From: an uncultured Verrucomicrobiae bacterium
GTDB lineage: Bacteria > Verrucomicrobiota > Verrucomicrobiia > Limisphaerales > Palsa-1400
DNA length: 64,000 nt
Assembly (NCBI GenBank): GCA_963813995.1
Contig: CAWFAZ010000086.1
Location: forward strand, 71,973-135,972
Direction of reading: 5' to 3'
Of the stretch, positions 3,424-47,850 are shown one piece after another. A program made the translations under genes and the position numbers. The notes under the pieces were generated by a model that ran no database searches, was not told the origin of the DNA, and was given only the letters and a program-made list of their open reading frames with translations. The number at the start of each line of letters is the position of its first letter. Position 1 is the first letter of the stretch.

Positions 3424-6174
<2,751 letters not shown>

Positions 6175-8004: not shown

Positions 8005-8138
8005 TACTTTACCGGATTTCAATCCAGGCGCAACAGAATCTGGCGGCAGGCGCCCGAACGGGGGTGTGAGAAAAATTCTTCGCAATCCCATTCTTGCGGG
8101 AGAGATGTATATGCGGCCCAATAGACTCCTTTTGACTC

Positions 8139-9233: not shown

Positions 9234-9237
9234 ATTC

Positions 9238-10098: not shown

Positions 10099-10463
10099 CA
10101 AAGACATTTCTGCTTTAAATTTTCCCGATTTCAGCGTTTTTGTAAAGGCCAACGTGTCAACAAGAAATAATGTCAAGAAAAAACAGCGCAAGTCGCAAAC
10201 ATCACAAGATAAAGCAGTTGCAACAAATCAAAACAGCCGTCAGACATCAGGGAAAAACCAAAACCGCGAATATTTCACTGTTTTTTTGGGCGGGTTTTCC
10301 TGGGAATTTCAAAGATGGACTTCGGATTTTTCCCGGCGCTTCAAAAAGAAAGGCAAAACCCGCGAAGAATTTTATCCCACACCCCCGAACGGGCGCAAAC
10401 CGGTTTTAGTTGGCCTTTTCCGGTTCCTGATCCTAATCTTGATCCCAATCCTGATCTTAACAG

Positions 10464-11294: not shown

Positions 11295-11311
11295 CGCCCC
11301 TCGCCGATTCG

Positions 11312-29363: not shown

Positions 29364-29427
29364 GTGATTGGTTGTTGCGCGCCCCGGTCAGCCACGCGCT
29401 GATCGGGGCGGCAATGAACATTCAGAT

Positions 29428-30306
29428 ATGAAACGTCAAAAGGCATTTACATTGATTGAATTACTGGTGGTCATCGCCATTATCGCCATACTGGCGGCCA
29501 TGTTGCTGCCCGCCCTTGCCCGTGCAAAAACGGCGGCCCTTTCGGTTAAATGCATGAGCAACAAGAAGCAAATGCAGTTGGCTTGGAGCATGTATGCCGG
29601 CGATAACCATGAGGTTCTTGCCGATAATCATGACTACCACGATTTTGGAAATTGGTCACCACCGACTCCGCCGGGAACGCCAGCCTGGTGCGAAGGGTGG
29701 TTGACGTGGGGTGTTGGTTCTCCTCCTTCTGACAACACCAACACAGCCCTCCTCAGCGGAATACCTTTGAATGGAAGAGTTTATGCGTTACTGGGGCCGT
29801 ACGTCGGCAATCAACTGGCCGTATTTCGCTGCCCCGGCGATACTTACGCCAGTGCGGCCCAGCACGCAGCCGGATGGGCGACTCGTGATCGCAGTATTGC
29901 CATGGATGGAAACATTGGGGGTGGAGAGAAATATGCATTTGAAGGTTGGACGCTCACGAATGCCATTACCAAAGCGGGCAATTTTACCTCGCCGGGGGCT
30001 GCCATGAGCTGGGTGTTCATGGATGAGCATCCTGATTGGATTGATGACTCCATTCTTTATGTTAACCCCGCCGAAACAAACGGGGTGGGTGAATTTACTG
30101 AACTGCCGGGGAGCTTTCACAATAATGCCTGTGGAATCAGTTTTGCCGATGGCCATGCCGAAATCCATAAATGGACGGATTCTCGAATCAATCTGCGGGT
30201 CCTATATGAGTATCAACAAGATCTTGGACCCGGTGGAATCAGCTTCCCGGCTGGTAACCCTTGCAAGGATCTGGCATGGATGGCACAGCGCACACCTTAC
30301 CAATAA
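29428..30306 (+). CDS. DUF1559 / H-X9-DG protein with prepilin-type N-terminal cleavage/methylation domain
   Basis: [34 protein letters not shown] is a type IV pilin-like leader and helix. The C-terminal [21 protein letters not shown] fits the H-x9-DG pattern. The ATG at 29428 is preferred to the upstream ORF-track start. Confidence 0.85.
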
Positions 30307-30376
30307 GTGCGGTGTGACGGCGTCGCCCAAACGGGGGCTTCCTGATTCGACGAAGTGAACGCTCCGCGCCCCGCCG

Positions 30377-31015
30377 TCACCCGCGAAGGTATTTCACCAC
30401 CGCGTCCGTCCGCGAATGCACGTGCAGTTTCTCATACACCGTGCGCACGTAGCTGCGCACCGTGTCGATGCTGATGTTCATCCGGTCCGCGATTTCCTTG
30501 TAAGCGTAGCCTTTGGACAGTTGGTCCAGAAATTCCCTTTCCCCCGGCGCCAGGCGCGACACCGGCGAGTTGTCCCCGGCCGGCTTGGAAAAAAACTGCA
30601 CCACCCGCCGCGCCAGTTGCGGCGTCATGGGCGAACCGCCGCCGTGAACATCGTGGATCGCCTCCAGCAGCCGCGCCAACGCGGTCCGCTTCAGCAGGTA
30701 GCCGCTGGCCCCGGCCTTCAAGGAATTGAACAGCGAGTCGCTGTCCTCATAAACTGTCAACATGAGAATTTGCGCCTTGGGCAGGATGGCTCTCAATTGC
30801 CGGACGCATTCCACGCCGTTCATCCCCGGCAGGTTGATGTCCATCAGCACCACGTCCGGCGGACGGTTGGGGATTTCTTTCAGGGCCGTTTCGGCGTCAG
30901 GATAGTCGCCCGTCAGGCGCAGCGCCGGCGCGCGCCGGATGAGCGTTGCCAGACTGGCGCGGATGCCCTCGTCATCATCCACGATCGCCACTTTGATCTG
31001 GGTCTTTTCTGTCAT
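30377..31015 (-). CDS. NarL/LuxR-family two-component response regulator
   Basis: The REC domain is KVAIVDDDEGIRASL...DVVLMDINLPGMNGVE. The LuxR HTH is EREFLDQLSKGYAYKEIADRMNISIDTVRSYVRTVYEKLHV. An alternative start lies at 31042. Confidence 0.9.
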   Translation of the reverse strand: MTEKTQIKVAIVDDDEGIRASLATLIRRAPALRLTGDYPDAETALKEIPNRPPDVVLMDINLPGMNGVECVRQLRAILPKAQILMLTVYEDSDSLFNSLKAGASGYLLKRTALARLLEAIHDVHGGGSPMTPQLARRVVQFFSKPAGDNSPVSRLAPGEREFLDQLSKGYAYKEIADRMNISIDTVRSYVRTVYEKLHVHSRTDAVVKYLRG

Positions 31016-31095
31016 GACAGTATAACAGTTGTCATGCTCCATTCATGGCATATAACCGCCCCTTCCGGCAATCACTGAACGTGCGGCGGCGAAGT

Positions 31096-34000
31096 TCAAG
31101 CTGCGGCCTTTCCGTTGCTGTGAATCAGCGCAAAATGCAGGCTCAATCTGACGGTGGTTCCCTGGCCGGGACGGCTCTCGATGGTCACGTTCTCGCCTAT
31201 CGCCTGCGCCCGGCGGCGCATATTGCCCAACCCGTTGCCCCGGCTCTGTCCGTTGATGTCAAACCCCCTGCCATCGTCCTGCACCATGATTTCCAACGCG
31301 TTGCCCGCCGCCTTGGCGCGGATGAGGACCTCGCGCGCGGCGGCATGTTTGAGCGCGTTGGCCAGCGCTTCCTTGACGACCAAAAAAATATTATGCCGGA
31401 CTTCCGGCGGCAGCGGAAGCGCCGGCAAATCGTGCGGCAGGTCCAGCCGGCAACGTATCCCGCCGCCTTCGAATAATTCATTGGCAAAGTGGGCGATGTA
31501 TTCCACAAGGCTTTGCAGCGAATCGCTCCCGGGCCGGACCGCCCAGACAATCTCCTCCAAGGCCCGCACGGTTTGATCGGCGGACTGGGAAATCTTGACC
31601 GCGTGGCTTTCGACCTGGCTGGGATTGTCCCGGTCCGCCTTGAGCAGGCCGCTCAAAAGCGAAATGCGGGCCAGGGACGAACCCAAATCATCGTGCAAAT
31701 CGCGCGCGATGCGCTCCCGTTCATGCGCCAGGGCGCGCTCCTGCTCCAATTGTTCCAACCGGCGGTGCAGTTTGCGCTTTTCCATCACCCGCGAGGTTGC
31801 CGCGATGATGACCAGCAATCCCAGCGAGGCTGGCACCCGAAACCACCACGTCTGCCATAAGTGCGGCTGCACGGTTACCGAGACACTTGCGCCCGTCTTG
31901 CTCCAGCCCCCTTCCCCGTTTCCAGCGATGACCTGAAATCGGTATTTGCCGAACGGCACATAAGGAAAGGAGGCCGAGCGGCTCGAGCCGGCTTCCACCC
32001 AATCGGAATCCAGTCCTTCGAGCCGATACCGGAAGCGCACCCGTTCGGGAGCATCGAAATTAAGGCCCGTGTATCGAAACTCAAGCCGGTGCTTGCCGGG
32101 TCCAAGACGCAATGATTCCGCCGCATCCGGCACCCCGTCCACCAGCGTCTCCTCCAGCACCACCGCTGGCGCGGGAATCCCCGTCGTTTGGTGATGTGGA
32201 TCAGCCACCACAATCCCCTCCTGCGTGGGGAACCAGAGCAGCCCTGATTCTGTTCTGAGGCCAATCGGAAAAAATCCGCTGATGCATTCCTCCGACAACA
32301 TGCCCTCTGTGCGGCCATAGGCCTGCGGATACGCCGCCGCTATCTTTTGCGCCGCCAAATCCTCCAATTCATGCTTGCTCACACAAACAATGCCCCGGTC
32401 GCCTCCCAGCCAAAGATTGCCCGCGTCATCTTCGAGTATTTGCGATATCGTATTGTCGGGAAGCCCTTCGCGCGTTGTAAATGTCGCCACCTTCCCCTCT
32501 TTCAACCGGCTCAACCCGCCGCCGCCCGTTCCGATCCAAAGTGTGCCTTCCGCATCCGGGTACAGTGTGCGGACCCAATCGCTCAGCAATCCGTTCCGTT
32601 TCCTCCAATGCCCGTCCGCCCTGCCTTCAACACTGAACAATCCATCGCCGGCGGTTCCCACCCATGTGGAGCCATCCTGCTGCGGCACAATGGCTGTTAT
32701 CGCATGGACGTGCTGGCCGTTCTTTTGTGCCAGCCACTGCCCATTGTCCTGCCACCAAAGCTCCCCTTGTCGTGTCCCCACCCACAGCCTGCCCTGCGCA
32801 TCCTGTCCCAACGCACTCACGTCCAGGTTGGTCAACGCCGCCAACCCGGGTTCGATCTCAACATTGCGCGCGTCCTTGAATTGCAGCAACCCGCGCGCGC
32901 CGCCCATCCAGCAACTGCCGTCCCTGGCCATCAGCAGCGCTCCCGCCCGGCCATCCCCCGGCGACAAGCCTGCGGCGGGCAGCGGCCTGAAATAACGGCC
33001 ATCCCAAAGATAGAGGCCCTCGCTTGATTTGCTCGCCCAAATCATACCCGGCGTTACCTCCGCCAGGCCCTGCACTGCGCCGTTGCCCAGCCCCTCGTTA
33101 TAGCTGATCACGGACAGGTTTTTGGGCCGCAGCCGATTCAAGCCTCCGTGCGTGCCCACCCAAAGTTTTCCTTCCCGATCCACCAGCAGCGCCTCCACCA
33201 AATTGTCCGACAAACCGCTGCTCGCATTCACAGCCACCAGCTTCCCATGCTTGAACTGGAACAAACCCTCGCTCACCGACCCCGCCCAAACCGTGCCGTC
33301 GGCATCCTCCGCCAGCGCGCTGACGTAGTGCCTCGCCAGGTGACGGGGAAACCGGTAGCGCCGCCACTGCTCCCCCTCGCGATACAGCACCGAGTCATCA
33401 CCCGCGCCGACCCAGATGCGCCCTTCATAATCCACCAGCAGGCAATGCGGATCCTCCAGCAAATTATCGAAGACCGGGTCATGCACCTTCAATAGTTCCC
33501 CGCCCCGCAGACTGAACACCCCGGCGCCCTTCGCCCCGATCCACATCGCGCCGGTGCGCTTGCTGAACAGCGACGTGATCGGTTTTCCGGCCAGTTCAGC
33601 CGGGGCGCTGGAAGTATCCAGATGCCCATTCCGCCATGCCGCCAACCCCGCTTCCGTGCCGACCCAAAGCCTCCCTTCGCTGTCCTCCGCCAGCGCATTC
33701 ACTGAATCCGACGGCAGTCCGTCCTGGGTGGTAAACGCCGTAAACCGCCCGTTCTGCCATCGTCCCAACCCCCGGCCCACGCTCCCGATCCACAGCGCCC
33801 CCTGCCCATCCCCCAACAGCGTCTGCACCGGCCCGGCTTGAAACCCTTCCGGCAAACCGAACGACACAAACCTCACCCCGTCAAACCGGCTCACCCCGGC
33901 ATCGCTCCCCACCCAAAGGTAACCATCCCTGGTCTGCGCCAGCGCCCGCACGAAATTCTGCGGCAACCCCTGCTCCCGTTGCCACACCCGGAACGTGAAT

Positions 34001-34773
34001 GGCAACTGCCCGCGCCCGATGGTCAGGCCCGCGTTGCCCGATTTTATTCCGCTCTCGTCCACCACGAAATCGCTGAACGACGTTGCAATCGCCATCTCGC
34101 TGAACGTCCAGCCATCCCCGCCCCCGCCGTGGCGCAGGCGGATTTGGTTGAACGACGCGTTCGCGGCGAACTTCGTCGTCAGGCTTTCCATCTGGTTGGC
34201 CTCCGTCGCGCCCGGCCCAAGATCCGGATCCAGCCACACCGTCACCAAATCCTTGCCCCCCGCCACATATTGCGCTTTAAAAACAATCGTCCGCTCAATC
34301 CCCTTGCGCGGCAGCTCATACAACTGCCCGGCCGCCGGCTTCGACGAATTCAAGTCAATGCCGTAATCCGTGGTTGCATTGTTCGTCCTGCCGGTTTCGA
34401 AAACATTGAAATTGGTTTTGCCGACCTCAAAAACATTAAACGCGCCGTAGGCCCAGGCCTGGAGCGCATTGCCCACCCCCAGCCGTTCCGTGTCCCCTTC
34501 GTACAGCTCGAACGCGGCAAAATAAGGCTCCGTGCCCGCATCCGATATCGGGTTCACATGAAACTTGAAATACAGCCTGTCCGTCGCCGCATCATCCCGT
34601 TTCACCGCCCCTCCCAGAATATCCGAGCCTGGCCCCGTCTCATGCGCCAGCGTCGCGCCCAAATCGCTCCAGATGATATCCGCCCGGCAGGAGGCCGATG
34701 CCAGGAACATCCATCCCGCCGCCACCCACACCCGCGCAGCGGGGCGGAGCGAAAAAACGGCCAGCGTGATCAT
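31096..34773 (-). CDS. Sensor histidine kinase: N-terminal unknown domain + beta-propeller (Reg_prop) repeats + Y_Y_Y + TM + HisKA_3 + HATPase_c
   Basis: The propeller repeats include DGYLWVGSDAGVSRFDG and similar units. The Y_Y_Y block is RLEFRYTGLNFDAPERVRFRYRLEGLDSDWVEAG. The TM segment is WWFRVPASLGLLVIIAATS. The HisKA_3 block is ERERIARDLHDDLGSSLARI, and the ATPase block is GRGFDI...GNGLGNMRRRA. The start is ATG 34773, with TTG 34821 also possible. Confidence 0.85.
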   Translation of the reverse strand: MITLAVFSLRPAARVWVAAGWMFLASASCRADIIWSDLGATLAHETGPGSDILGGAVKRDDAATDRLYFKFHVNPISDAGTEPYFAAFELYEGDTERLGVGNALQAWAYGAFNVFEVGKTNFNVFETGRTNNATTDYGIDLNSSKPAAGQLYELPRKGIERTIVFKAQYVAGGKDLVTVWLDPDLGPGATEANQMESLTTKFAANASFNQIRLRHGGGGDGWTFSEMAIATSFSDFVVDESGIKSGNAGLTIGRGQLPFTFRVWQREQGLPQNFVRALAQTRDGYLWVGSDAGVSRFDGVRFVSFGLPEGFQAGPVQTLLGDGQGALWIGSVGRGLGRWQNGRFTAFTTQDGLPSDSVNALAEDSEGRLWVGTEAGLAAWRNGHLDTSSAPAELAGKPITSLFSKRTGAMWIGAKGAGVFSLRGGELLKVHDPVFDNLLEDPHCLLVDYEGRIWVGAGDDSVLYREGEQWRRYRFPRHLARHYVSALAEDADGTVWAGSVSEGLFQFKHGKLVAVNASSGLSDNLVEALLVDREGKLWVGTHGGLNRLRPKNLSVISYNEGLGNGAVQGLAEVTPGMIWASKSSEGLYLWDGRYFRPLPAAGLSPGDGRAGALLMARDGSCWMGGARGLLQFKDARNVEIEPGLAALTNLDVSALGQDAQGRLWVGTRQGELWWQDNGQWLAQKNGQHVHAITAIVPQQDGSTWVGTAGDGLFSVEGRADGHWRKRNGLLSDWVRTLYPDAEGTLWIGTGGGGLSRLKEGKVATFTTREGLPDNTISQILEDDAGNLWLGGDRGIVCVSKHELEDLAAQKIAAAYPQAYGRTEGMLSEECISGFFPIGLRTESGLLWFPTQEGIVVADPHHQTTGIPAPAVVLEETLVDGVPDAAESLRLGPGKHRLEFRYTGLNFDAPERVRFRYRLEGLDSDWVEAGSSRSASFPYVPFGKYRFQVIAGNGEGGWSKTGASVSVTVQPHLWQTWWFRVPASLGLLVIIAATSRVMEKRKLHRRLEQLEQERALAHERERIARDLHDDLGSSLARISLLSGLLKADRDNPSQVESHAVKISQSADQTVRALEEIVWAVRPGSDSLQSLVEYIAHFANELFEGGGIRCRLDLPHDLPALPLPPEVRHNIFLVVKEALANALKHAAAREVLIRAKAAGNALEIMVQDDGRGFDINGQSRGNGLGNMRRRAQAIGENVTIESRPGQGTTVRLSLHFALIHSNGKAAA

Positions 34774-34865
34774 GCGCCAAATATGCGTCAACCCGCGCCG
34801 CAAGACAAGCGCCGACCTCAATTCTCCGGTGGGAACAAATTGGGGGGTTCTGGAGTGACGATGAG

Positions 34866-37433
34866 CTACGCCACCCGCTCGAACTCCTTAAGTCGCACTT
34901 GCGATTGCAGATAACCAATCAACGCCTCCCGCTCCTGGGGGCTGAGCTGCGACAGTGAGCCGAAGAGGCTTGCGTCACGAGCGCGCAGTTCAGCGAACCT
35001 GCCTTCCTCCAGCAGCATCCGGCTTTGCTCATCCAGCAGGAAAGCCACGAACACCATGCGCAATTCCCGGTTGTGAGTGGCGCTGGTTTCTTGCGTGGTG
35101 ATGAAACGTTCAAACGCTTCATCCGCAAGCTCGCCGCGCGTCGGGATGTTCGGAGCTAAACCGAACACTCGGGCGAGTATTTCCCGCAAACTCGGCAAGC
35201 GATCCGTTTTGTAAACCTCCTGAAGCTTTGGCAGATTCCAGAATTCTTGAGGCTTCTCGAACAGCAGGCGGCGGATGCGTGTCTCGACCGCGGGCCAGTC
35301 CTCCGCGTCGTACGCTTGCCGCAGAAGAGCGTCACTGGCGACAGCCTCGCTGGCCTGGTGTGCAAAACGCTCGCGATACATTTCGCGGTCAATCCGCATT
35401 CCGAAAAGTCCAACCTCATCACGGATGACAGTGGCCATCGGGTCAGGCGATGTGTTGGTGAAATCCTCAATGCGAATACCTCCCCCGCCGCCATCACCTC
35501 CGCTGCCTTCTTCGGGCGGCCCTTTCGGCAACGACAGCTTCCGGTCGTAATCAAATTCCCCCTCGAAGAACTCGAAGTTGGCGAAGAAGTCGAAGAGGGC
35601 GAAGCTGTCCTTCCTGGCAGTCCTTTGACTTGCGCCCTCGCCATGTTGGAACGTGAACAGCCGCGTCCCACGGCCTTTGATCTGGATGAAATCGGTGGGC
35701 GAAAAAATCGGTCGCGCCAGCGCCACATTTAGCACGTCTTCGCAATCGTAGCCGGTGGTCATCATCCCCACCGTTACGCAAACGCGGGTTCGGCTCGTGT
35801 CGTAATCGCGAAACTCTTCCCCCCGCCACTTCGATTTGCCATTAAGGTTGTTGTTTGCAAAATCAATCGTCATCTGCTGCGCTCCGGCTATCTCTGACGT
35901 GACTTGCACCGCAAACGTCGAACCGGCGGCGTATTCTTTCGGCCAGCGGCGCGTCGCTTCCTCGTTGAGCAATGTCACCAGCTTGGTCGCGTGCTTGCGA
36001 CTGACGGCAAACATGATGGCCTTGCCGGTTTCGCCGGTAACTGGATCGCACTTGGCGTTGTCCAGGAAACAGCGGACAAAGCTCAGGTTGGTTTCATCCG
36101 AGAAAAATCTCCGCTCGTAATCGCGCTTGCCGAAAACAAGTTCGGTCTCCTGGCTCTCCTCGTTGGCCGGCACAGTGACTGCGTAACCTTCGTCGGAAAG
36201 CATTTGCGTGGTGATGTCCGTGCGCGCATCGAGCGTGACGGGATTACAGAGGTAGGGCGGCACATGCTGAACGGCGTTGGGCAGGGTGTAACGGAACGTT
36301 GGCTTGCCGTCATCGCTGCCGAAAGTCCGGTACGTGTCGAGGAGCAGCCGCCGCTCGTATTCGCGTGGATCGTTTTGCCGCGCCTTGTCATCCAAACCCT
36401 TGAGGTAATCCCTGGGTGTCGCGGTGAGGCCGAGTTTTGCGCCGATGAAATACTCAAAGATGGCCCGGTTGTTTCCGCTGATGGTGCGATGCGCCTCGTC
36501 GCTGATAATGAGTTGGAAATCCGTCGGGGCAAACTCATGCAGGAAGCGGTTGCGGGCCGCAAGGCTTTGAATCGTCGTCACCATCACTTGCGCCTGCTTC
36601 CACTCCTCCCGCCGCTGTTTGTAGATGACCGTCTGAATGCCGTCGTTGGCGAGGTAGGCGTTGAAATTCTTCCACGCCTGAGTCTCCAGCTCCAATCGGT
36701 CCACGAGAAACAAAATGCGCGTGGCATTTTCGGTGCGGAGGTACAGCTTGGCGATGGCCGCGCTCAAGAGCGTCTTGCCCGTTCCGGTCGCCATTTCGAA
36801 AAGAAATCGGTGGTTTTGCGGTGTCGCCGCCTTTTGCAGCGCGCGAATGCCTTCAAGCTGGTAATCGCGCAGGAGGCGGATTTTCTTGTTCCCCATCACC
36901 GCCGCGCGATCGGCTGGGGAATACGAAAGCCACGCGGCATCCTGCGAAACGGCAATGTAATTCTCATCCACCGGGACGGCGGCGAGCCGGGTGGAATCGG
37001 GCCGCCACTCTGCCGCCTTCCCCAAGTCTGCTAGCGGCAGGAAACGCGATACCTTGACCGGATTGCCCTGCCGCAGATTCCAGTAGTAATGCACCAGCCC
37101 ATTGCTGAGGAAAATGTGGCTGGCCCCGAGGCTCTCCGCGTAACTGCGCGCCTGCTCCTTGCCGGTGAGCGGGTCAATGCTCTCGCGCTTGGCTTCCGTA
37201 ACTGCCACCGGCCGTTGGTCGGTGTTCAGCAGCACGTAATCCACGAAACCCTGCGGCGCGTGCTCGAAATCATTGCCCAAGTCCTGGCTGGGGGAAAACA
37301 CCCGCCGCGTGACACGGTGCTCGCAGATGATGTTCTCGCGCCGCCCCTGCGCATCAGGCAGGAAACGCCAGCCTGCTTCCTCCAGTAGCTTGTTGATGGT
37401 GATGCGCGCTTGGGCTTCGGATGATCGAATCAT
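34866..37433 (-). CDS. hsdR: Type I restriction enzyme R-subunit-like protein (PD-(D/E)xK nuclease + SF2 helicase + EcoEI_R_C-like tail)
   Basis: The N-terminus is SEAQARITINKLLEEAGWRF...GFVDYVLLNTDQRPVAVTEAKRE (D...E-x-K nuclease pattern). Helicase motif I is EMATGTGKT, motif II is IISDEAHR and motif VI is QIKGRGTR. The ATG at 37431-37433 follows the upstream gene's stop (TGA 37435-37437) by 1 nt. Confidence 0.85.
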   Translation of the reverse strand: MIRSSEAQARITINKLLEEAGWRFLPDAQGRRENIICEHRVTRRVFSPSQDLGNDFEHAPQGFVDYVLLNTDQRPVAVTEAKRESIDPLTGKEQARSYAESLGASHIFLSNGLVHYYWNLRQGNPVKVSRFLPLADLGKAAEWRPDSTRLAAVPVDENYIAVSQDAAWLSYSPADRAAVMGNKKIRLLRDYQLEGIRALQKAATPQNHRFLFEMATGTGKTLLSAAIAKLYLRTENATRILFLVDRLELETQAWKNFNAYLANDGIQTVIYKQRREEWKQAQVMVTTIQSLAARNRFLHEFAPTDFQLIISDEAHRTISGNNRAIFEYFIGAKLGLTATPRDYLKGLDDKARQNDPREYERRLLLDTYRTFGSDDGKPTFRYTLPNAVQHVPPYLCNPVTLDARTDITTQMLSDEGYAVTVPANEESQETELVFGKRDYERRFFSDETNLSFVRCFLDNAKCDPVTGETGKAIMFAVSRKHATKLVTLLNEEATRRWPKEYAAGSTFAVQVTSEIAGAQQMTIDFANNNLNGKSKWRGEEFRDYDTSRTRVCVTVGMMTTGYDCEDVLNVALARPIFSPTDFIQIKGRGTRLFTFQHGEGASQRTARKDSFALFDFFANFEFFEGEFDYDRKLSLPKGPPEEGSGGDGGGGGIRIEDFTNTSPDPMATVIRDEVGLFGMRIDREMYRERFAHQASEAVASDALLRQAYDAEDWPAVETRIRRLLFEKPQEFWNLPKLQEVYKTDRLPSLREILARVFGLAPNIPTRGELADEAFERFITTQETSATHNRELRMVFVAFLLDEQSRMLLEEGRFAELRARDASLFGSLSQLSPQEREALIGYLQSQVRLKEFERVA

Positions 37434-37434
37434 A

Positions 37435-38259
37435 TCAAGCCACCCCCAATTCAAGTTGGTGTTGATGCGGCGGCGCGAACACCCCAACGATTATCCACGG
37501 ATTCGGCGCGAAGCCATGAAATTGCTGCGTCGTGCCAAGGAAGAAATGCAAATCGCGTTTGCCGAACTCATCCAGATACTTGGCTTTTACTTTTTCCAGC
37601 GCCACCGACTCCTCGCCATATCGCCGGAAGCAATTCCAATAAAGCTGGCCGCACTCCCAATCCAAAACTTGCATGGTGCTTTTCCGGCCGGCTACATCCT
37701 CAATTTGATACGAGAAGGCGTATGGCAGCTTGGGAATGACTTTGAACGCCTGCCGCCAGGACTCCTCGGCAAAGAGTTCAGTTTGCCGGTTCATATTCCG
37801 CATTTGTGCCAGCTTGTTTTCATCCCACTCGCGGTCGTCATCTTCCCAAATGAAACCACGAATCTTAGCCGGCTTGAAAACCGCCAAAGACAGCCGGTTT
37901 TCCTTCGCGCCGACGAAGAGCGGCTCAAGCTGTTCGTAAACCGTGGCCCGCTTCAACAGCAATTCACGCCGTTCCCGCCAGTTGTCTTCCGTTCCCATGT
38001 GGCCGCTTGGGAGCAGCTTGGTGGGGTCGGCGGGGTGGTGCGTTTCCGGGCGGATGTCCGAACGGCTTCGGATGAAATCAGCTTCGATCCAATCGAACTT
38101 CTTATATTGCTCCTGCTCCTCCAAGCGTCGGAACGGCACGGGATAAATCCGCATCCACGACCCATCGGCGCGCACGCCGGCTGTGCAAACGGTCTCGCCG
38201 TATTTTCGCGACAGCGTCGGGTAGGTCTTGACCGTGATTAGCACGCGCTCCTTGGGCAT
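37435..38259 (-). CDS. Hypothetical protein, no recognisable family (passenger gene 2 in the R-M operon)
   Basis: 274 codons starting at MPKERVLITVKTYPTLSRKYGETVCTAGVRADGSWMRIYPVPF. It lies 11 nt after the DUF488 gene's stop, and its own stop lies 1 nt before the hsdR start. It has a sensible amino-acid composition and the same strand and spacing as the rest of the operon. Confidence 0.6.
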   Translation of the reverse strand: MPKERVLITVKTYPTLSRKYGETVCTAGVRADGSWMRIYPVPFRRLEEQEQYKKFDWIEADFIRSRSDIRPETHHPADPTKLLPSGHMGTEDNWRERRELLLKRATVYEQLEPLFVGAKENRLSLAVFKPAKIRGFIWEDDDREWDENKLAQMRNMNRQTELFAEESWRQAFKVIPKLPYAFSYQIEDVAGRKSTMQVLDWECGQLYWNCFRRYGEESVALEKVKAKYLDEFGKRDLHFFLGTTQQFHGFAPNPWIIVGVFAPPHQHQLELGVA

Positions 38260-38270
38260 AACCCTTGTCC

Positions 38271-39164
38271 CTACAAATGCACCACCGCCGAATCCTTTCC
38301 CGCGCCCTGCGCCAGCGCTTCCGCCACACAATGCCGGTGGCATTGCTGCGGCAATAATTCAAAACACGTCAACGCCACCCGATCGCCTTCCCCGATCCAG
38401 CCGCGGATTTTCGCCAGCGCTTCGCTCTGCTTGGGCAGGCTCTTGCGCTCATACTCGACAAACAACGCATCGTAATCCGCCTGTGTCTTCAGGTCGCGGC
38501 GCTCCCCCGAATCAATGCCCAGCTCCGGCAAATGCTCGTAACGAATCCCCACGCCTTCGCACACCTTGCTCAGCGTGCTTTTGGAAAATCCATACTTGCG
38601 GCTCAATGGATTCCGGCGCACGTCACACAACAGCGTCACGGAATTCTTGAGCAGCAGATTCAAATACGCCTCCAGACTCCGGCCTTCATAGCCGATCGTC
38701 ACCAGTCCGGGCTGACCTTTTTCCGGATGCGCCTCAATCACGCGCTGGCGCGACCCGGCATCCGGCAACACTTTTTCCACGATCTCACTGCGCGTCGCGT
38801 AGTAGGGGAACTTCCGGTATTGCTCGGCAATGAGCGCATTCCCCCGGAGCCTGGCATGGTCGCGGCAAAACCGCGCCACCATCAGCGGCATCACCGCCTC
38901 CTTGCGGGCTGTCTGGCGTCCTGCCTCCGTGAGTTGCCACTGGTTTTCGTCCGCCGTCAGGAGGCCGGCCACCGCCAGCCGCCGCTTGTCCGCGTAGGAC
39001 GTGAACGAAAACGCCCCAAACTTGTAGGGCACGAATTCGTAGGTGGGGGATTCCTCGCATTGCTGCGTGTAAAGAAACAGCAGCTTCTGGAAATCAGTGT
39101 TCGCCACCGGCCCGCCAAGGGCGTCCAGCATCGTTAATAGCAGGCGTTGGCGTTCAAATAACAT
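38271..39164 (-). CDS. DUF488-domain protein with an extra N-terminal domain of about 125 aa (passenger gene 1 in the R-M operon)
   Basis: The C-terminal half VTIGYEGRSLEAYLNLLLKNSVTLLCDVRRNPLSRKYGFSKSTL...ALTCFELLPQQCHRHCVAEAL matches my recollection of DUF488. The N-terminal part FQKLLFLYTQ...YEFVPYKFGAFSFTSYADKRRL is an additional domain. Confidence 0.7.
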   Translation of the reverse strand: MLFERQRLLLTMLDALGGPVANTDFQKLLFLYTQQCEESPTYEFVPYKFGAFSFTSYADKRRLAVAGLLTADENQWQLTEAGRQTARKEAVMPLMVARFCRDHARLRGNALIAEQYRKFPYYATRSEIVEKVLPDAGSRQRVIEAHPEKGQPGLVTIGYEGRSLEAYLNLLLKNSVTLLCDVRRNPLSRKYGFSKSTLSKVCEGVGIRYEHLPELGIDSGERRDLKTQADYDALFVEYERKSLPKQSEALAKIRGWIGEGDRVALTCFELLPQQCHRHCVAEALAQGAGKDSAVVHL

Positions 39165-39204
39165 TTCAGCGCAAGTTAACCCAAAACCGTGACAAGTAAA
39201 AGCT

Positions 39205-39363
39205 CTAATTCATTCCCCGGCCCCCGCACCATTCCCCCCGGTCGAGGACGCATTGGATTTTGGCCTCGAAGCGGGGGATCAGCGACCGCACCGCCCCCAT
39301 CTGTGCCGCCTCCGCGTCCAGTTCGGCCAGAAGAAACCTTAGCTCAGTATCCAACAATTTCAT
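39205..39363 (-). CDS. Possible 52-aa ORF translationally coupled to the methylase gene
   Basis: It falls below the 60-aa ORF-track cutoff. The minus strand reads ATGAAATTG...: the ATG (39361-39363) overlaps the methylase TGA (39360-39362) as ATGA, and GGAGGA lies 9 nt upstream. The product is MKLLDTELRFLLAELDAEAAQMGAVRSLIPRFEAKIQCVLDRGEWCGGRGMN, and the stop is TAG at 39205-39207. Confidence 0.3.
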   Translation of the reverse strand: MKLLDTELRFLLAELDAEAAQMGAVRSLIPRFEAKIQCVLDRGEWCGGRGMN

Positions 39364-41372
39364 TTTTCTTCGTCCTCCGGCCCAAGAATGGTTTCAACAT
39401 GTGTTTTCTTTGCTGCGGTTTTCAACAGTGATTCAGCTGTCTCGAAGACTTTCTCCGCCAAACGTAAGAACTCCGGGTTGGTCGCGCTCCGTTTCAGGCT
39501 CAACGCTATTTCTTCAATTTGCTTTGCGTGCTCCTCGGCTAAGTAAACCTCTATTATTTCCTTTTGTATTTCCGGCTTCGGAACGGGAATTACAAGATTC
39601 AGCAGTTGCGTGCTGCTCATCGTGATGTTGGTTGCACCAGACATCAATGGAACGAGGATCTGGTATCGCAGACGACTTAGTAGTATAAACAAATAACGCG
39701 GAATTACCTCTTTCTCGTTTTTTGAAAAGAGCGCGCACATTGTCGTAGCTATAGCAAACTTCCCTTCTTGGTAATGGAGGCGTTTGATGTCAGCCTTGCC
39801 GTGTCCGGCAGACGAAACCAGCGGAATACAAACCGCATTACCTTCGAAGTCCCAGTGGTCTGATGTTTTTCTCTCTTCTGCAGGGACAACGAGAGCGTAA
39901 TCGCCCGGCGGCGTTGCCATGTTGGGCGAGAGACCATCTTTAACGTCACAGATGTCGCCCAGCCTACGGAGCGGAATGTCTGGTCGGTGTGTGATGCGGT
40001 TTGGGAGGTCATACCAGCGGCCAAGAAGATTCCGTTCCTCATCTTGCTTAATCGTGTCCTTGGAAACCGTGAATGCCATTACTCCCTTCTTCCGACGTTT
40101 CCACGGGCGGTGCTGGCCGACTGCCTGGCTGAAGCCCTTTACAACCTCCAGTGCAGCGGGAAGTTCATTGCCTTCAATTGGCAGGCGGGTGTCGCTTTGC
40201 GTGAAGCCGTCATTTTCAATTTCGACAAACAGAATCTCGCGTGATTGTCGGGAAAGAGATTTGTCCGCCAGCAAGATATGAGTCTTCACGCTGGCGTAGG
40301 GTTTGAAGACTCCGTGCGGTAGCGTGATGTCGGCGAGCAACATGTCCTCATCCACGAGCATTCTGCGAAGTTTTGTCTGTGCGCCTTGCTCATTGGACAT
40401 GATGCCTTCGGGAACGATTACCCCGGCGCGACCGTTGGCGTTGAGATGTTCAAGCATGTAGTCCAAGAAGAGTACCTCGGCCTTGCGGCTTGCGACGCCA
40501 AAGCGGGTGTGCGGGGTCACGCCGCCTTTGGGAGTCATGAACGGCGGGTTGGCAAGGATGAGGTCGGCCTTCTCGTGCCAGCGGGCATCGTTGCTCAGGG
40601 TGTCGTAGATGTGGATGGCGGGGTCGGGAAAGCCGTGGAGGAAGAGGTTCACCTTGCTCAGCTTCACCATGAGGTCGGTGATGTCGTAGCCGGCGAGATT
40701 GCCATAGAGTTTCTGGCGCTGGTCGTGCGTGAGCCGGTCGCCGGAAATGTTCGAGCCGGGCGAGGTGCTTTGCGCCAGGATGTGTTTGTAGGCGGAAACA
40801 AGGAATCCACCCGTGCCGCACGCGGGATCGAGGATTTTGTCGCCCGGCTGCGGGTCAAGGCAGGCGACGATGAAATCAATGATGTGGCGCGGGGTGCGGA
40901 ATTGGCCGTTCTCGCCCTGTGTGCCCATGCACTGGAGGAGATATTCGAAGGCGTTGCCGAGTTCCTCGCTGTGCGAGTAGGCGAAGCCGTTCACCTCCGT
41001 AAGGAACATCGTGAGGATGCGCCCGTCGCGGAATTTCAGGAAGGCATTGCGGAAGATGTCGCGGAAGAGGCCGGGCAGGTGCGCGGCTTTCTTTGGATTT
41101 CCCAGCGCCTCGATTCCTTCGGAAAAGAGCGTGACGCGCTGCTCGGCGGAGACGGTTTGCGGAAGGAGATTGCGCCAGCGATATTTTGCGAGGTCGCCGA
41201 TGAAGAAGGAGCGTTTGCCACCGAGCTTCACGGATTCCTCGTCGAGGTCGTCCATGAACTTGTAGATCAGTGCGAGCGTGATGAGTTCGACCTGGTCGGA
41301 GGGCAGCGGGAGCTTGCCAACGAGTACGTCGCGGCAGGCATCAATGCGGCGTTTGGTTTCAGAGGTAAGCAT
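39360..41372 (-). CDS. hsdM: N6-adenine DNA methyltransferase (HsdM-like) fused to a single HsdS-type target-recognition domain
   Basis: The HsdM_N-like N-terminus is IDACRDVLVGKLPLPSDQVELITLALIYKFMDD. The SAM motif is ILDPACGTGGFLV and the catalytic motif is LILANPPFMTPKGG. The C-terminal region of about 240 aa (LRRLGDICDVKDGLSPN...VIPRYLFILLSRLRYQILVPLMSGATNITMSSTQLLNLVIPVPKPEIQKEII) follows the type I S-subunit TRD pattern. Confidence 0.85.
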   Translation of the reverse strand: MLTSETKRRIDACRDVLVGKLPLPSDQVELITLALIYKFMDDLDEESVKLGGKRSFFIGDLAKYRWRNLLPQTVSAEQRVTLFSEGIEALGNPKKAAHLPGLFRDIFRNAFLKFRDGRILTMFLTEVNGFAYSHSEELGNAFEYLLQCMGTQGENGQFRTPRHIIDFIVACLDPQPGDKILDPACGTGGFLVSAYKHILAQSTSPGSNISGDRLTHDQRQKLYGNLAGYDITDLMVKLSKVNLFLHGFPDPAIHIYDTLSNDARWHEKADLILANPPFMTPKGGVTPHTRFGVASRKAEVLFLDYMLEHLNANGRAGVIVPEGIMSNEQGAQTKLRRMLVDEDMLLADITLPHGVFKPYASVKTHILLADKSLSRQSREILFVEIENDGFTQSDTRLPIEGNELPAALEVVKGFSQAVGQHRPWKRRKKGVMAFTVSKDTIKQDEERNLLGRWYDLPNRITHRPDIPLRRLGDICDVKDGLSPNMATPPGDYALVVPAEERKTSDHWDFEGNAVCIPLVSSAGHGKADIKRLHYQEGKFAIATTMCALFSKNEKEVIPRYLFILLSRLRYQILVPLMSGATNITMSSTQLLNLVIPVPKPEIQKEIIEVYLAEEHAKQIEEIALSLKRSATNPEFLRLAEKVFETAESLLKTAAKKTHVETILGPEDEEK

Positions 41373-41658
41373 TAAATTTTGAGCTTCATCGTCGTTTCTT
41401 GCCGCAACCGCCGCGCCAGCGCCACTTTACTTTTATCCCGTTTGCCCAAGCCCGGCAAGTCTTGTTCCTTCCATAACCCGTCCAAGTCAACGCTCCTTTG
41501 TGACGGGGTGGTGATCCGCCGTCGCCGCCGGTTTGACTTTAGCCTTTAGCATTCAGCCTCTTGTCTCGCCACAGCTTCCGAGCGGCGGCAGATCAGCATT
41601 TGCTCTGTGCCGTGCAGGCCCGGATTTGTAAGAAGTTCGGAGTTCGCGTCTTTCGCAT

Positions 41659-41733
41659 ATTTCGCGGTTAACCCGGTTTTCCATGATCTGTCAGGGCATC
41701 CGTGAAATCCGTGCCATCCGTGGTCAAATTCTT
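41659..41733. repeat. Intergenic repeat family, copy B (compact form)
   Basis: ATTTCGCGGTTAACCCGGTTTTCCATGATCTGTCAGGGCA, then a 17-nt linker containing ATCCGTG iterations, then ATCCGTGGTCAAATTCTT. See copy A at 9887-10098. Confidence 0.7.
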
Positions 41734-42023
41734 AAACCAAGTCCAAGTCAACCTGATCGTTAAAAGGCTTCCGCCTGCGCTGCGGCAGCCACGGCGCGAT
41801 GAGATGGCGGCCCGACGAAAGTTCTGAAAAACTGCCAGTCGGAGCGCCGCAACCTGACCATTGTCAACTGCAAATAATTGCCGATTACGCAAGTGCCTTG
41901 CTGACAACTGGTTGTGACTATTCAAAATGTCGAATTTTTCACCGTTTTTTTCGGGGCGGTATTCTTCAACGCAAGTTGTCCTGAGAAAATCAAAGGTGGA
42001 TTTTGGATTTTTTTGTGCCCCGG

Positions 42024-42040
42024 CCTTGCAAACTGCAAGG
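42024..42040. promoter_or_regulatory. Perfect 7-3-7 palindrome about 115 nt upstream of the GH13 gene (candidate operator)
   Basis: CCTTGCA-AAC-TGCAAGG at 42024-42040, with a related half-site GTGCAAAC about 40 nt downstream. No cognate regulator has been identified. Confidence 0.2.
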
Positions 42041-42155
42041 TTTCAAAAACTGATCTCCCCCGCACGTTTATGCGGTTGTGCAAACAGGGCGTTTCCGATA
42101 ATATGCGCCTGGAATTCACGGACACGCACAACAGCGCAAACAAGAATCAATCACT

Positions 42156-43583
42156 TTGAAAAGCAAACTTGGAATCATCATCGGCTCCCTGGCGGTGGTG
42201 TTATTGTGCCAGCCTGCGGCGCGGGCGGATAATCTTTCCCAAATCCCGGCGCGAACGTCCCCGGCATGGCTGCGCGACGGCGTGGTTTACGAAATCTTCC
42301 CGCGTGATTTTTCCCCCGCCGGAAATCTCGACGGGGTCATCGCGAGCCTGGATGAATTGAAGGATTTGGGCGTGACCATCCTGTGGACCATGCCGATCCA
42401 TCCGATTGGCGAAAAGTGCCGCAAGGGCGAGTTTGGCAGCCCGTATTCCATCAAGGATTTTTACGCCGTGGATCCCCATTACGGAACGGTGGACGATTTC
42501 AAACGGCTTGTCGCCGAAGCCCACAAGCGCGGTTTGAAGGTCATCATGGATATCGTGGCCAACCATACGTCGTGGGACAACGCGATGATGCAGCAGCACC
42601 CGGAATATTACCTGCAAGACGCGCAAGGCAAAATCATCCCGCCGGATCCTGGCTGGTTGGATGTCGCGGGGTTGAATTATGCGAACCCGGCGCTGCGCCA
42701 ATACATGATTGCCATGATGAAGTATTGGGTGCAGACGTGCAACGTGGATGGTTTCCGCTGCGACGTCGCCTGGAATGTGCCGACGGATTTCTGGGAAGCG
42801 GCGCGCGCCCAACTCGAAAGCGTCAAGCCGGACATCGTGTTGCTGGCCGAGGCGAGCAAGCCCGATCTGCTGGTGAAGGCATTTGACGTTGATTACGCCT
42901 GGCCGCTGATGGGCACGCTCAATGATGTGCTGATCAAAGGCGCGCCGGCCTCCAAGCTGCGCGCTTCGTGGGAGGAGAGCCTGCGGCAGTTCCCGCGCGA
43001 TTCGCTCCACATGCGTCTCACGGACGATCACGATGAACCGCGCGCGGTCTCGCGCTTTGGTGTGCGCGGCGCGCTGGCCGGCTCGGCGCTGATGTTCACG
43101 CTGGACGGCGTGCCGCTGCTTTACAACGGGATGGAAGTGGGTGACGCTACGGAATCCGGCGACCCTGCGCTGTTCGACAGGCTGCCTATTTTCTGGTCGC
43201 CCAAGGACCGCCCGCCTTTGCGCAGGATTTATCACGACCTGATCCAGTTGCGCAAAGAGAACGCCCCCTTCCGCAACGGCCGCGTCATTTGGCTGCACAA
43301 TTCAAACGAAGGCAGCCTCGTCACGTTCAAGCGCGCGGATGAGACGAATGAATTCGTGGTGGTGATCAATTTCTCGAACCGCCCCATCCACGGGCAGGTG
43401 GAAGTCACCAACGGCGGGGATTTCAAGCCGGTGCGGATTGCCGGAATGCCCCAGGTTCCGAACCAGGATTTTCCATCGGTTCATTTGGGAGGTTTTGACT
43501 GGCGCATCTATCAGCGCAGTCTGCCGGTCGCGCGGCATACCCCTGCGGACACAAGGCCGGTCCAGATTGGCCTGGCGCACTGA
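42156..43583 (+). CDS. Secreted GH13 alpha-amylase-family enzyme
   Basis: TTG start and signal peptide MKSKLGIIIGSLAVVLLCQPAARA. The GH13 blocks are VVYEIFPRDFSPAGNLDGV...LGVTILWTMPIHPIG, KVIMDIVANHTS, DGFRCDVAWNVP, VLLAEA and LTDDHDEPR. Confidence 0.85.
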   Translation: MKSKLGIIIGSLAVVLLCQPAARADNLSQIPARTSPAWLRDGVVYEIFPRDFSPAGNLDGVIASLDELKDLGVTILWTMPIHPIGEKCRKGEFGSPYSIKDFYAVDPHYGTVDDFKRLVAEAHKRGLKVIMDIVANHTSWDNAMMQQHPEYYLQDAQGKIIPPDPGWLDVAGLNYANPALRQYMIAMMKYWVQTCNVDGFRCDVAWNVPTDFWEAARAQLESVKPDIVLLAEASKPDLLVKAFDVDYAWPLMGTLNDVLIKGAPASKLRASWEESLRQFPRDSLHMRLTDDHDEPRAVSRFGVRGALAGSALMFTLDGVPLLYNGMEVGDATESGDPALFDRLPIFWSPKDRPPLRRIYHDLIQLRKENAPFRNGRVIWLHNSNEGSLVTFKRADETNEFVVVINFSNRPIHGQVEVTNGGDFKPVRIAGMPQVPNQDFPSVHLGGFDWRIYQRSLPVARHTPADTRPVQIGLAH

Positions 43584-43610
43584 AACAAAAGCCCGCTGGT
43601 TTATGACACC

Positions 43611-44999
43611 ATGAGCGCAGTGCGAGATGAACCCGCCCCCCGGCTAAAAACCGCCGGGCCGAAGCCACGGTTGAGTTTCTGGCAAATCTGGAACATGAGC
43701 TTCGGCTTTCTCGGCATCCAGTTCGGCTGGGGTCTGCAGATGGCGAACATGAGCTCCATTTACCGGTACCTCGGGGCGAACTACGATTCCCTGCCCATCT
43801 TGTGGCTGGCCGCGCCCGTCACCGGCTTGCTCATCCAACCCTTGGTCGGCCAATCCAGCGACCGCATCTGGACCCGGCTGGGCCGGCGGCGCCCGTTTAT
43901 TCTGGGCGGCGCGATTCTCGCCTCGCTGGCTCTGGTCTTGATGCCTAATTGCCCGTCGGTTTGGATGGCGGCGGGACTGCTCTGGGTGCTGGATGGAACC
44001 ATCAATGCCAGCATGCAGCCTTTCCGGGCGTTGGTGGCGGACAATCTTCCCGAAGAACAAAACTCGCAAGGCTTTGCCATCCAATCCCTGTTCATTGGGT
44101 TGGGCGGCACCATTGCATCAGCGTTGCCTTGGATGATGACCAACTGGTTTGGAGTTGCCTCCGAAGGCGCGGGGCAGGGACATGTGCCCGCTTCCGTCAG
44201 GCTCTCGTTTTACATCGGCGCGGCGGCGTGCATGGGCGCGGTGCTCTGGACGGTTTTTACCACCTCGGAATATCCGCCTTCCGAATCGGAACTGGCCGCC
44301 ATCCGCATCAGGAAATTCGACTGGACTCTTGGGTTGGGCGACATCTATGCGCTGGTTTTTCATTTGCCCCGGCGGATGTGGGAGCTGGGGTTGGTTCAGT
44401 TCTTTACCTGGGTCGGAATGTTCACGCTTTGGGTTTATTTTCCCCCGGCTGTTGCGAAAAACATATTTCATGCGGCGACAGGCTCGGTGGCAATGGAAGC
44501 TTCCGGTTCCTGGTCGGGCTTCTGTTTTGCCGCGTATAATGCCGTTTGCTTCATTTTTTCATTCGTGCTGCTGTGGGGCACGAAATACACCGGCCCCAAG
44601 CTGATGCACATTCTCTGTCTGGCGGCGGGTGCGCTGGGGCTGGCGTCCGTTCCTCTGGCTTCAGACAAGTATCACCTGTTGATCGCCATGACCGCGGTCG
44701 GCATCGCGTGGGCGAGCATCCTTTCCATGCCTTACGCCATGCTGGTGCCCGCGCTGCCGAAGGAAAAAGTCGGGGTCATGATGGGGATGTTCAATCTGTT
44801 CATCGTGCTGCCGCAGATTGCCGCTTCCAGCCTGCTCGGTTACATCTTGAAAAATTATCTGCACAGCGAACCCATGAATGCCCTCGTCCTGGGCGGGGCG
44901 AGCATGGGACTGGCCGCCGTGCTGACGCTGTTGGTGGTGACCTTCAAGCGTCTTGAGCGTTGCCCTGCTCCTGCAGATGCTGGCACAGTGGGTGGATGA
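43611..44999 (+). CDS. MFS transporter, SLC45/GPH-like (putative maltose/malto-oligosaccharide:H+ symporter)
   Basis: 462-aa polytopic ORF. The N-terminus is FWQIWNMSFGFLGIQFGWGLQMANMSSIY...GQSSDRIWTRLGRRRPFILGG, as in SLC45-type sugar transporters. It sits between an amylase gene and malQ. Confidence 0.8.
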   Translation: MSAVRDEPAPRLKTAGPKPRLSFWQIWNMSFGFLGIQFGWGLQMANMSSIYRYLGANYDSLPILWLAAPVTGLLIQPLVGQSSDRIWTRLGRRRPFILGGAILASLALVLMPNCPSVWMAAGLLWVLDGTINASMQPFRALVADNLPEEQNSQGFAIQSLFIGLGGTIASALPWMMTNWFGVASEGAGQGHVPASVRLSFYIGAAACMGAVLWTVFTTSEYPPSESELAAIRIRKFDWTLGLGDIYALVFHLPRRMWELGLVQFFTWVGMFTLWVYFPPAVAKNIFHAATGSVAMEASGSWSGFCFAAYNAVCFIFSFVLLWGTKYTGPKLMHILCLAAGALGLASVPLASDKYHLLIAMTAVGIAWASILSMPYAMLVPALPKEKVGVMMGMFNLFIVLPQIAASSLLGYILKNYLHSEPMNALVLGGASMGLAAVLTLLVVTFKRLERCPAPADAGTVGG

Positions 45000-45027
45000 A
45001 AAGTCCGCGTCCGCCTGATCCCCGCCC

Positions 45028-47733: not shown

Positions 47734-47760
47734 TTTTCTTTGGTCATTAGTTTAAACAAA

Positions 47761-47850
47761 TGGCGGAAGGGGTGGGATTCGAACCCACGTTGGGGTTTCC
47801 CCCAAGCCTGATTTCGAGTCAGGTACATTCAACCACTCTGCCACCCTTCC
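47761..47850 (-). tRNA. tRNA-Ser (anticodon CGA), long variable arm, CCA encoded
   Basis: The reverse complement is GGAAGGGTGGCAGAGTGGTTGAATGTACCTGACTCGAAATCAGGCTTGGGGGAAACCCCAACGTGGGTTCGAATCCCACCCCTTCCGCCA. The acceptor stem is GGAAGGG/CCCTTCC, the anticodon stem is CCTGA/TCAGG with loop CTCGAAA, and the T arm is GTGGG-TTCGAATC-CCCAC. Confidence 0.93.

Follow-up and report, generated by a model that had tools for sequence, protein, structure and literature searches.

The window analysed here is a stretch of 64,000 nucleotides from an uncultured Verrucomicrobiae bacterium (contig CAWFAZ010000086.1 of assembly GCA_963813995.1), and the subject of this report is a block of five co-directional open reading frames (ORFs) on its minus strand, in which the genes of a Type I-like restriction-modification (R-M) system enclose two passenger genes. 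The passengers, called here A (the DUF488 protein) and B (the 274-aa protein), are full-length matches to the two components of PDC-M19, a phage defence candidate (PDC) that has already been catalogued. A first-pass annotation, made from the sequence alone, had placed five ORFs here, and all of them are present. The block and the region upstream of it consist of the following features.

39360-41372, minus strand: hsdM fused to a half-hsdS with a single target recognition domain (TRD), 670 aa (Pfam, PADLOC).
39205-39363, minus strand: 52-aa ORF (homology to the C-terminal ends of longer M-S fusions).
38271-39164, minus strand: PDC-M19A, 297 aa (PADLOC PDLC04505, Pfam DUF488, AlphaFold2 and Foldseek).
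37435-38259, minus strand: PDC-M19B, 274 aa (PADLOC PDLC04508, AlphaFold2 and Foldseek).
34866-37433, minus strand: hsdR, 855 aa, PD-(D/E)xK nuclease and superfamily 2 (SF2) translocase (Pfam, NCBIfam).
41373-42155, no strand: about 780 nt of non-coding DNA upstream of hsdM-S, the presumed promoter region (ORF list).

The junctions read from the sequence are as minimal as the annotation described. The stop codon of the methylase gene and the start codon of the 52-aa ORF overlap as ATGA at 39360-39363, and a gap of 40 nt separates this ORF from A, whose ATG is at 39164. The TAG stop codon of A is followed after 11 nt by the ATG of B at 38259, and the TGA of B after 1 nt by the ATG of hsdR at 37433. 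The start sites of B and of HsdR agree with homologues and with the gene calls on identical contigs; the longer ORF variants of the two (302 and 873 aa) are not used, and the homologues begin at the ATG codons of the shorter forms. A scan of the operon and its upstream region for sigma-70-type promoters found nothing above shuffled expectation, and a scan for terminators inside the operon found no convincing one and none above the same level. Because no promoter- or terminator-like site exceeds shuffled expectation inside the block, it is plausible that the block forms one transcript. Its promoter is presumed to lie within the roughly 780 nt upstream of hsdM-S, a region in which no long ORF with a family match was found.

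The identification of the passengers rests on two profile matches. Residues 3-296 of A align with positions 2-293 of the 294 of the PADLOC model PDC-M19A (E-value 9.3e-105), and residues 29-299 of the 302-aa ORF of B align with positions 1-268 of the 269 of PDC-M19B (4e-106). The two genes are adjacent on the minus strand and co-directional, A before B, with the 11-nt gap between them, which is the arrangement that defines PDC-M19. Payne, Hughes, Fineran and Jackson (bioRxiv 10.1101/2024.01.29.577857) obtained the PDCs by collecting the genes that lie inside BREX, DISARM or Type I R-M loci; they named 145 candidates after filtering out genes already known to serve in defence, mobility or housekeeping. 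Table S8 of the same preprint lists the pair as CAS_00089, FAM_02799>>FAM_02993, with a count of 174 and the remark 'Assign as candidate PDC-M19', and the order of the genes in the window is that of the table. As judged from these matches, the pair is an instance of the catalogued candidate PDC-M19, and nothing sets it apart from it. The annotation had proposed a candidate new defence module. The novelty does not hold, since both passengers are full-length matches to proteins published from just such an embedding. The underlying idea, that genes nested in this way are defence candidates, is supported by the PADLOC listing and by the recurrence of the pair near R-M and defence genes. The remark that neither passenger is like the known nested effectors also stands: the ABC-type ATPase N-terminal domain and C-terminal anticodon nuclease domain of PrrC and RloC have no match in A or B in PADLOC, Pfam or NCBIfam.

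The domain matches likewise support the description of the host locus as a Type I-like R-M operon with two nested genes foreign to R-M. The methylase contains Pfam N6_Mtase at residues 136-445 (7e-50) and Methylase_S at residues 469-608 (4e-10), and matches PADLOC MTase_I at 2e-90. Both motifs named for the fusion of the methylase to a TRD, DPACGTGGFL and NPPF, are visible in its translation, as is expected of HsdM, a gamma-class N6-adenine methyltransferase. There is no separate two-TRD HsdS; the single Methylase_S domain is fused to HsdM and the second TRD is absent. HsdR contains Pfam HSDR_N_2, ResIII, Helicase_C and EcoEI_R_C, and its translation shows D..EAK, GTGKT and DEAH, so that the nuclease and helicase motifs predicted for it are intact. 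It matches the NCBIfam EcoAI/FtnUII model at 6e-50 and 170 bits, under the cutoff of 550; by sequence it is related to the EcoAI/EcoEI family but is not an equivalog. Full-length relatives of this HsdR have identities of up to 86-88%. The operon is, on these domain assignments, a Type I-like R-M system comprised of an HsdM-half-HsdS fusion and an EcoAI-like HsdR. Membership in the MADS system, considered because of a mad2 match of the methylase, was rejected: the NCBIfam MAD2 score is 106.9 bits vs a cutoff of 720, and the other four ORFs have no mad match.

The distribution of the pair was studied in B loci from 48 GTDB species-representative genomes of eight phyla and in 25 IMG/VR contigs carrying B; genes in GC-rich relative loci were called by the GC content of the third codon position (GC3). 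A is found directly upstream of B and on the same strand in essentially all of the 48 GTDB loci with enough sequence. A DUF488 gene adjoins B in 22 of the 25 viral contigs, and DUF488 is present in each of the seven phage records that have B. By this near-invariant adjacency the two passengers are strongly linked to each other elsewhere as well. In three of the retrieved relative loci, which carry L numbers here (L031, L035, L036), the partner of B is a short protein consisting of DUF488 alone; the DUF488 domain, and not the N-terminal domain of A, is therefore the constant partner of B. The identity between phyla is 57-83%, and the distribution is patchy and resembles that of horizontally transferred genes.

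The pair is also carried by temperate phages, by conjugative plasmids such as Rhizobium pRL8 and by viral contigs without R-M genes. It is kept in convergent orientation in pRL8 and in Gordonia phage Nymphadora, and in temperate Gordonia phages it is situated within the lysogeny module, by the repressor and the integrase. In Nymphadora (L137, NC_031061, positions 4974-6271), gp42, annotated as 'HipA toxin', is a short DUF488 protein with 36% identity to residues 154-297 of A, and gp43, which immediately follows the immunity repressor and lies close to the integrase, is a homologue of B. The two are probably a convergent, prophage-borne, PDC-M19-like pair. The 'immunity repressor' itself, gp44, was tried as a homologue of A and is not homologous. 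A B homologue with 29% identity adjoins the integrase of the Sulfolobus islandicus conjugative plasmid pSOG2 (L138, positions 3998-4864), and the 168-aa gene downstream of it in pSOG2 is not detectably DUF488.

The neighbours of the pair are mostly housekeeping genes, and the commonest identifiable ones are Type I S, M and R proteins. A recurrence of the passengers by R-M and other defence genes is seen in the neighbourhood survey. The pair is embedded in at least three Type I families (that of the window and those of L021 and L033), and L023 and L034 also have Type I genes on both sides of it. Twenty loci have flanks of 3 kb or more to either side: no Type I gene occurs within three genes of the pair in 14 of them, whereas Type I genes flank it on both sides in four and on one side in two. 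With short-flanked loci included, the pair lies inside a Type I R-M locus or next to its genes in about 9 of 34. It is solitary in Hyalangium; in Bartonella it is found beside, not inside, an EcoR124-type R-M system, in an island rich in toxin-antitoxin (TA) genes.

The converse survey, of 80 metagenomic loci encoding relatives of the window HsdR, examined what lies between the methylase and hsdR genes. Close relatives (64-86% identity) have the M-S to R order of the window, and the slot between the two genes is variable. It is empty in L055, L058, L062 and L063, and contains DarT and DarG in L057 and L059, a RhuM-family protein (PDC-S05) in L054 and L056, PDC-M25A and PDC-M25B in L053, and PDC-M19 in L061. 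Additional cargo lies by A and B in two loci: a protein like the 23S-rRNA intervening-sequence protein in L009, and a helix-turn-helix protein and an IrrE-type peptidase followed by a 193-aa ORF in L010. In the loci of more distant HsdR relatives, at 44-49% identity, the order is R to M and the PDC-M19 pair is absent. The identity of HsdR to that of the window is 86% and 85% in loci with other cargo vs 88, 80, 74, 68 and 67% in carriers of PDC-M19, and B of L061 is just 48% identical to B of the window. Because the identity of HsdR does not track the cargo and B of L061 is so divergent, the cargo must be exchanged independently of the R-M genes around it.

The variability of the slot and the turnover of its contents are strong evidence against an obligatory functional partnership of the pair with the R-M enzyme. 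The annotation had argued from the tight coupling of the genes that the passengers are expressed with the enzyme and possibly work with it. The coupling speaks for co-transcription, but a shared mechanism does not follow from it, and joint action is not supported, in view of the 14 of 20 loci without Type I genes nearby, of the phages, plasmids and viral contigs that carry the pair without R-M genes, and of the empty or otherwise filled slots of close relatives. It is very probable that the pair is autonomous cargo in a variable R-M slot, and the evidence says that PDC-M19 is a horizontally mobile two-gene cassette and not a part of the restriction enzyme.

The single-TRD methylase and the 52-aa ORF behind it are explained by the same family of R-M systems. 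The M-S fusions of L009, L010, L012, L054, L059 and L061 are 828-990 aa long, have two TRDs and end in '...LVAELDAEAAQMDSVRSLLPRFEAKIQRVLDRVWG'. Fusions of 623-677 aa with one TRD occur naturally and commonly among the relatives, and the TRD of one of them (L114, 677 aa) is closely related to that of the window (1e-49). For both reasons the possibility that the 670-aa fusion is a truncated pseudogene was rejected; since single-TRD fusions are a natural form in this family, the window methylase is probably intact and probably acts as a dimer.

The 52-aa ORF exists and has the ATGA overlap with the methylase gene, as annotated, but it is not an independent gene. Searches of Pfam, PADLOC and NCBIfam found no family match for it. 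It aligns with residues ~784-820 of the 828-aa M-S fusion of L012 and with the equivalent ends of the fusions of L009, L010, L053, L054, L057 and L058, with 75-82% identity over 34-36 residues, and is homologous to the last ~40 residues of two-TRD fusions. A small regulatory or adaptor gene was rejected on this homology. The ORF is probably what remains of the conserved C-terminal helix of a two-TRD M-S fusion in an ancestor, and is unlikely to be a functional gene; such a relic would point to an earlier recombination in which a specificity region with one TRD replaced the previous one. In the sister locus L015, an IS200-like Y1 transposase of 150 aa is inserted into the M-S gene at its 3' end (positions 8008-8460), and the insertion splits off a 92-aa remnant with the same C-terminal helix as the 52-aa ORF.

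The surroundings of the block in the window are those of an ordinary chromosome. One flank encodes a Reg_prop/Y_Y_Y histidine kinase and a LuxR-type response regulator, the other an alpha-amylase, a major facilitator superfamily transporter and a 4-alpha-glucanotransferase; a prepilin-type N-methyl protein and tRNA-Ser(cga) are also found in the flanks (29368-34821 and 42156-47850). No integrase or transposase adjoins the R-M block within these flanks. The GC content of the locus is not deviant and does not mark it as foreign.

The annotation could place no motif in B, and indeed no Pfam family matches this protein (which has 274 residues, not 275). Its AlphaFold2 model (predicted local distance difference test score, pLDDT, 88.1; predicted template modelling score, pTM, 0.87) was compared with known structures by Foldseek. 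The matches are RPA on DNA, the HIN domains of p202 and p204 on double-stranded DNA, CST, Teb1, SSB and RecO, and further baculovirus LEF-3 and phage single-stranded DNA (ssDNA)-binding proteins. B is accordingly predicted from its model to be a protein with tandem oligonucleotide/oligosaccharide-binding (OB) folds and a putative nucleic-acid binder. The B family has thousands of homologues, which form 2263 clusters at 50% identity. D68, R70, E72, D200, W201, T243 and G259 are invariant in it, and the polar set D68, R70, E72, D200, W201 and E202 is unusually conserved. In three homologues (P0018, P0022 and P0029) a C-terminal Mrr_cat nuclease domain is fused to B, and the DUF488 gene still precedes B there; this PD-(D/E)xK domain, typical of Mrr-like Type IV enzymes, is absent from B of the window. 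One such B-Mrr_cat variant (L049, positions 9095-11302), again with a DUF488 gene before it, adjoins an Unstab_antitox TA pair among genes of sugar metabolism.

A is the long DUF488 protein that had been described: Pfam DUF488 covers residues 164-284 (3e-25), and the protein also matches phrog_14939 (2e-52). Searches of the PDB with single protein sequences and with family profiles returned nothing for A or B. The AlphaFold2 model of A (pLDDT 92.6, pTM 0.89), which like that of B is confident, was used in whole-chain Foldseek searches. The top match is 7yk3_D, chain D of the Mycobacterium tuberculosis DarTG complex (probability 1.00, E=4e-3, TMt=0.48), followed by winged-helix proteins of the PadR and MarR types and by weak matches to dual-specificity phosphatases and similar alpha/beta folds, which we infer to belong to the DUF488 half of the protein. 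DarG inhibits DarT by binding it with its C-terminal domain, a homologue of the DUF4065 antitoxins (PMC13621843). According to the model, A would consist of an N-terminal helical or winged-helix domain that resembles the DarG C-terminal domain, and of a C-terminal DUF488 domain. An hhalign comparison of A with the DarG C-terminal domain is weak (E=0.054 over 41 columns), and A has no match to Pfam DUF4065 even with the threshold relaxed to E<=10.

The explanation that best accounts for these findings is that the locus is a Type I-like R-M operon carrying an autonomous, mobile PDC-M19 cassette that functions as a DNA-directed, TA-like module; we give this reading a probability of roughly 0.6. 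The cassette would be transcribed with the R-M genes and would work on its own, as an immunity or addiction module. B would bind DNA through its tandem OB folds, probably ssDNA or the replication or recombination intermediates of an invader, and would be the harmful or effector component, to which some lineages add an Mrr-type nuclease. A, the first in the operon, would restrain or reverse B in uninfected cells by means of its DUF488 enzyme domain and, in the long form, of the domain that resembles the C-terminal, toxin-binding part of DarG. On infection, B would be released or A overwhelmed, and replication would be blocked.

The polarity of this scheme, with B as the toxin and A as the antitoxin, is possible but doubtful. 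It is suggested by the gene order, since A before B with gaps of 4-11 nt fits an antitoxin-toxin operon, by the partner-binding-like domain in A and by the nuclease fusions on B. It is also suggested by the pattern of decay, and the mobile-element contexts fit it as well. In about seven loci (L040-L042, L044, L045, L047 and L048) B has suffered a frameshift, a truncation or an internal deletion while the neighbouring A is intact, and no locus with an intact B beside a decayed A was seen among those surveyed. Two Latescibacterota loci share the same short remnant of B, which could be a conserved mini-form and not a product of decay. The most specific version, in which an RPA- or HIN-like tandem-OB protein poisons or marks replicating DNA and a DUF488 enzyme, tethered by a domain like that of DarG or Panacea, neutralises it as a previously unrecognised DNA-directed TA immunity, is unlikely.

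Several observations weigh against the TA-like module. Regarding PDC-M19 itself, a literature search for an experimental test, a domain analysis or a mechanism found none, and most PDCs await validation according to a 2026 survey. Regarding B, the Foldseek TM-scores of 0.2-0.4 and identities of 5-13% support the fold class alone, and no recognisable catalytic fold was seen among the matches. Regarding A, the likeness to DarG is structural only, with no DarG match in the PADLOC search; the N-terminal domain is basic (median isoelectric point 9.3 across 121 homologues), which speaks against mimicry of ssDNA, the mode reported for the DarG C-terminal domain, so that an acidic mimic of this kind was rejected; and by its model the domain fits a DNA-binding winged helix equally well. 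A literature search found no biochemical activity of DUF488. The short DUF488-only partners and the convergent pairs are unusual for classical TA operons, and the asymmetry of decay is based on few loci, all of which were retrieved through B.

Three other explanations have been considered. The strongest of them reverses the roles and is improbable on balance: in a sensor-effector abortive infection system, a harmless HIN- or RPA-like B would sense phage DNA or ssDNA and activate a toxic DUF488 enzyme in A. The structural matches of B to DNA sensors and binders are consistent with this, and A, like the short partners on phages and plasmids, retains the conserved polar motifs of DUF488. One Pfam subclade is named 'Active DUF488-N3 subclade', and 'NACHT-associated inactive REase 1' is a further match of one of the domains fused to B; the two names suggest a use of DUF488 as an effector-type domain in conflict systems. 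If B were only a sensor, however, A would be expected to decay next to an intact B about as often as the other way round, and only the decay of B is seen. Moreover, the Mrr fusions place the obvious effector domain on B and not on A, and any activity of DUF488 is putative.

Somewhat less probable still is that the pair does not function in immunity, being either a selfish module that serves the addiction to, or the stabilisation of, mobile elements, or a pair of genes for the repair or processing of DNA, and accumulates in recombination hot spots such as R-M slots. Its presence on conjugative plasmids, in prophage lysogeny modules and on viral contigs and its patchy distribution across phyla would be accounted for, as would the outcome of the literature search, in which no defence assay of PDC-M19 was found. 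Yet the other occupants of the slot are validated or candidate defence systems, namely DarTG and PDC-S05, the latter of which protected E. coli (PMC12881386). The guilt-by-embedding approach that yielded the PDCs has led to the validation of 7 systems, and a sporadic distribution ill suits a housekeeping role in repair. The remaining explanation, which takes up the idea of the annotation, is the least probable. In it, A and B act with the Type I enzyme, for example by recruiting HsdR to particular DNA, by modulating restriction alleviation or as a PrrC-like back-up suicide module set off when the R-M system is inhibited: the translationally tight position inside the operon, the embedding in several Type I families, the Bartonella copy by an EcoR124-type system and a predicted DNA binder without a nuclease of its own in the window would all suit it, but R-M genes are missing next to most copies, the R-M family of the window also works when its slot is empty or filled with unrelated cargo, and the pair has no similarity to PrrC or RloC.

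As a discovery the locus adds little, since PADLOC already lists the pair, which had been detected through the same logic of nesting in R-M loci. It is a well-documented instance of PDC-M19, in an R-M family that is a textbook case of a swappable cargo slot, being empty or filled with DarTG, RhuM, PDC-M25 or PDC-M19. The predicted structures provide a first concrete and testable hypothesis for PDC-M19, that of a tandem-OB-fold B, sometimes fused to Mrr, with an A that combines DUF488 and a domain like the DarG C-terminal domain. If the pair is indeed an OB-fold/DUF488 TA immunity module, this would be the first function for the large orphan DUF488 family and for a family of more than 2000 clusters without a Pfam entry, and would bring a bacterial tandem-OB DNA sensor or effector into immune modules. 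With a positive assay, DUF488 and a large protein family that lacks annotation would gain a function.

Among the known systems close to PDC-M19 is DarTG. Both are two-gene modules, DNA-directed in the case of DarTG and, on the preferred reading, in that of PDC-M19; both occupy the same slot between the methylase and hsdR genes, DarTG doing so in the sister loci L057 and L059. In DarTG one partner joins an enzyme domain to a partner-binding domain, as A is predicted to do, and the structure closest to the N-terminal domain of A is the DarT-binding domain of DarG. The passengers, however, have neither an ADP-ribosyltransferase nor a macrodomain; A has DUF488 instead, and B is an OB-fold protein. 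No Pfam or PADLOC match to DarT was found in them, although the same models readily detect DarT in L057 and L059. The order of the domains in A is the reverse of that in DarG, the order of the genes is reversed as well (DarT precedes DarG), and the N-terminal domain of A is basic and not an acidic DNA mimic. Panacea (PanA), with its DUF4065 domain, resembles A in two respects: the N-terminal domain of A matches a structure homologous to DUF4065, and both proteins are encoded upstream of an unrelated partner. A differs in having no Pfam DUF4065 match and an additional DUF488 domain.

B compares best with the tandem OB-fold binders, its best structural matches being RPA, CST, Teb1, the HIN-200 domains of p202, p204 and AIM2-like receptors, and LEF-3; it is distinguished from them by its own invariant acidic and arginine motifs and by its obligatory DUF488 partner. 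With EcoprrI, which contains PrrC, with RloC and with other genes nested in Type I R-M loci the locus shares the nesting of co-transcribed cargo between hsdM/S and hsdR, but the pair has no sequence or domain similarity to them. PrrC hardly ever occurs other than embedded (Payne et al., bioRxiv 10.1101/2024.01.29.577857), whereas most copies of PDC-M19 are solo.

The R-M enzyme of the window, finally, is comparable to Type I systems with a half-size HsdS. The truncated HsdS subunits of EcoDXXI and EcoR124I dimerise and thereby recognise symmetric target sites. Like them, the window system has one TRD followed by one conserved helix, and a separate HsdR with a nuclease and an SF2 motor. Its TRD, however, is fused to HsdM in one polypeptide of 670 residues, a form that is common in its R-M family.

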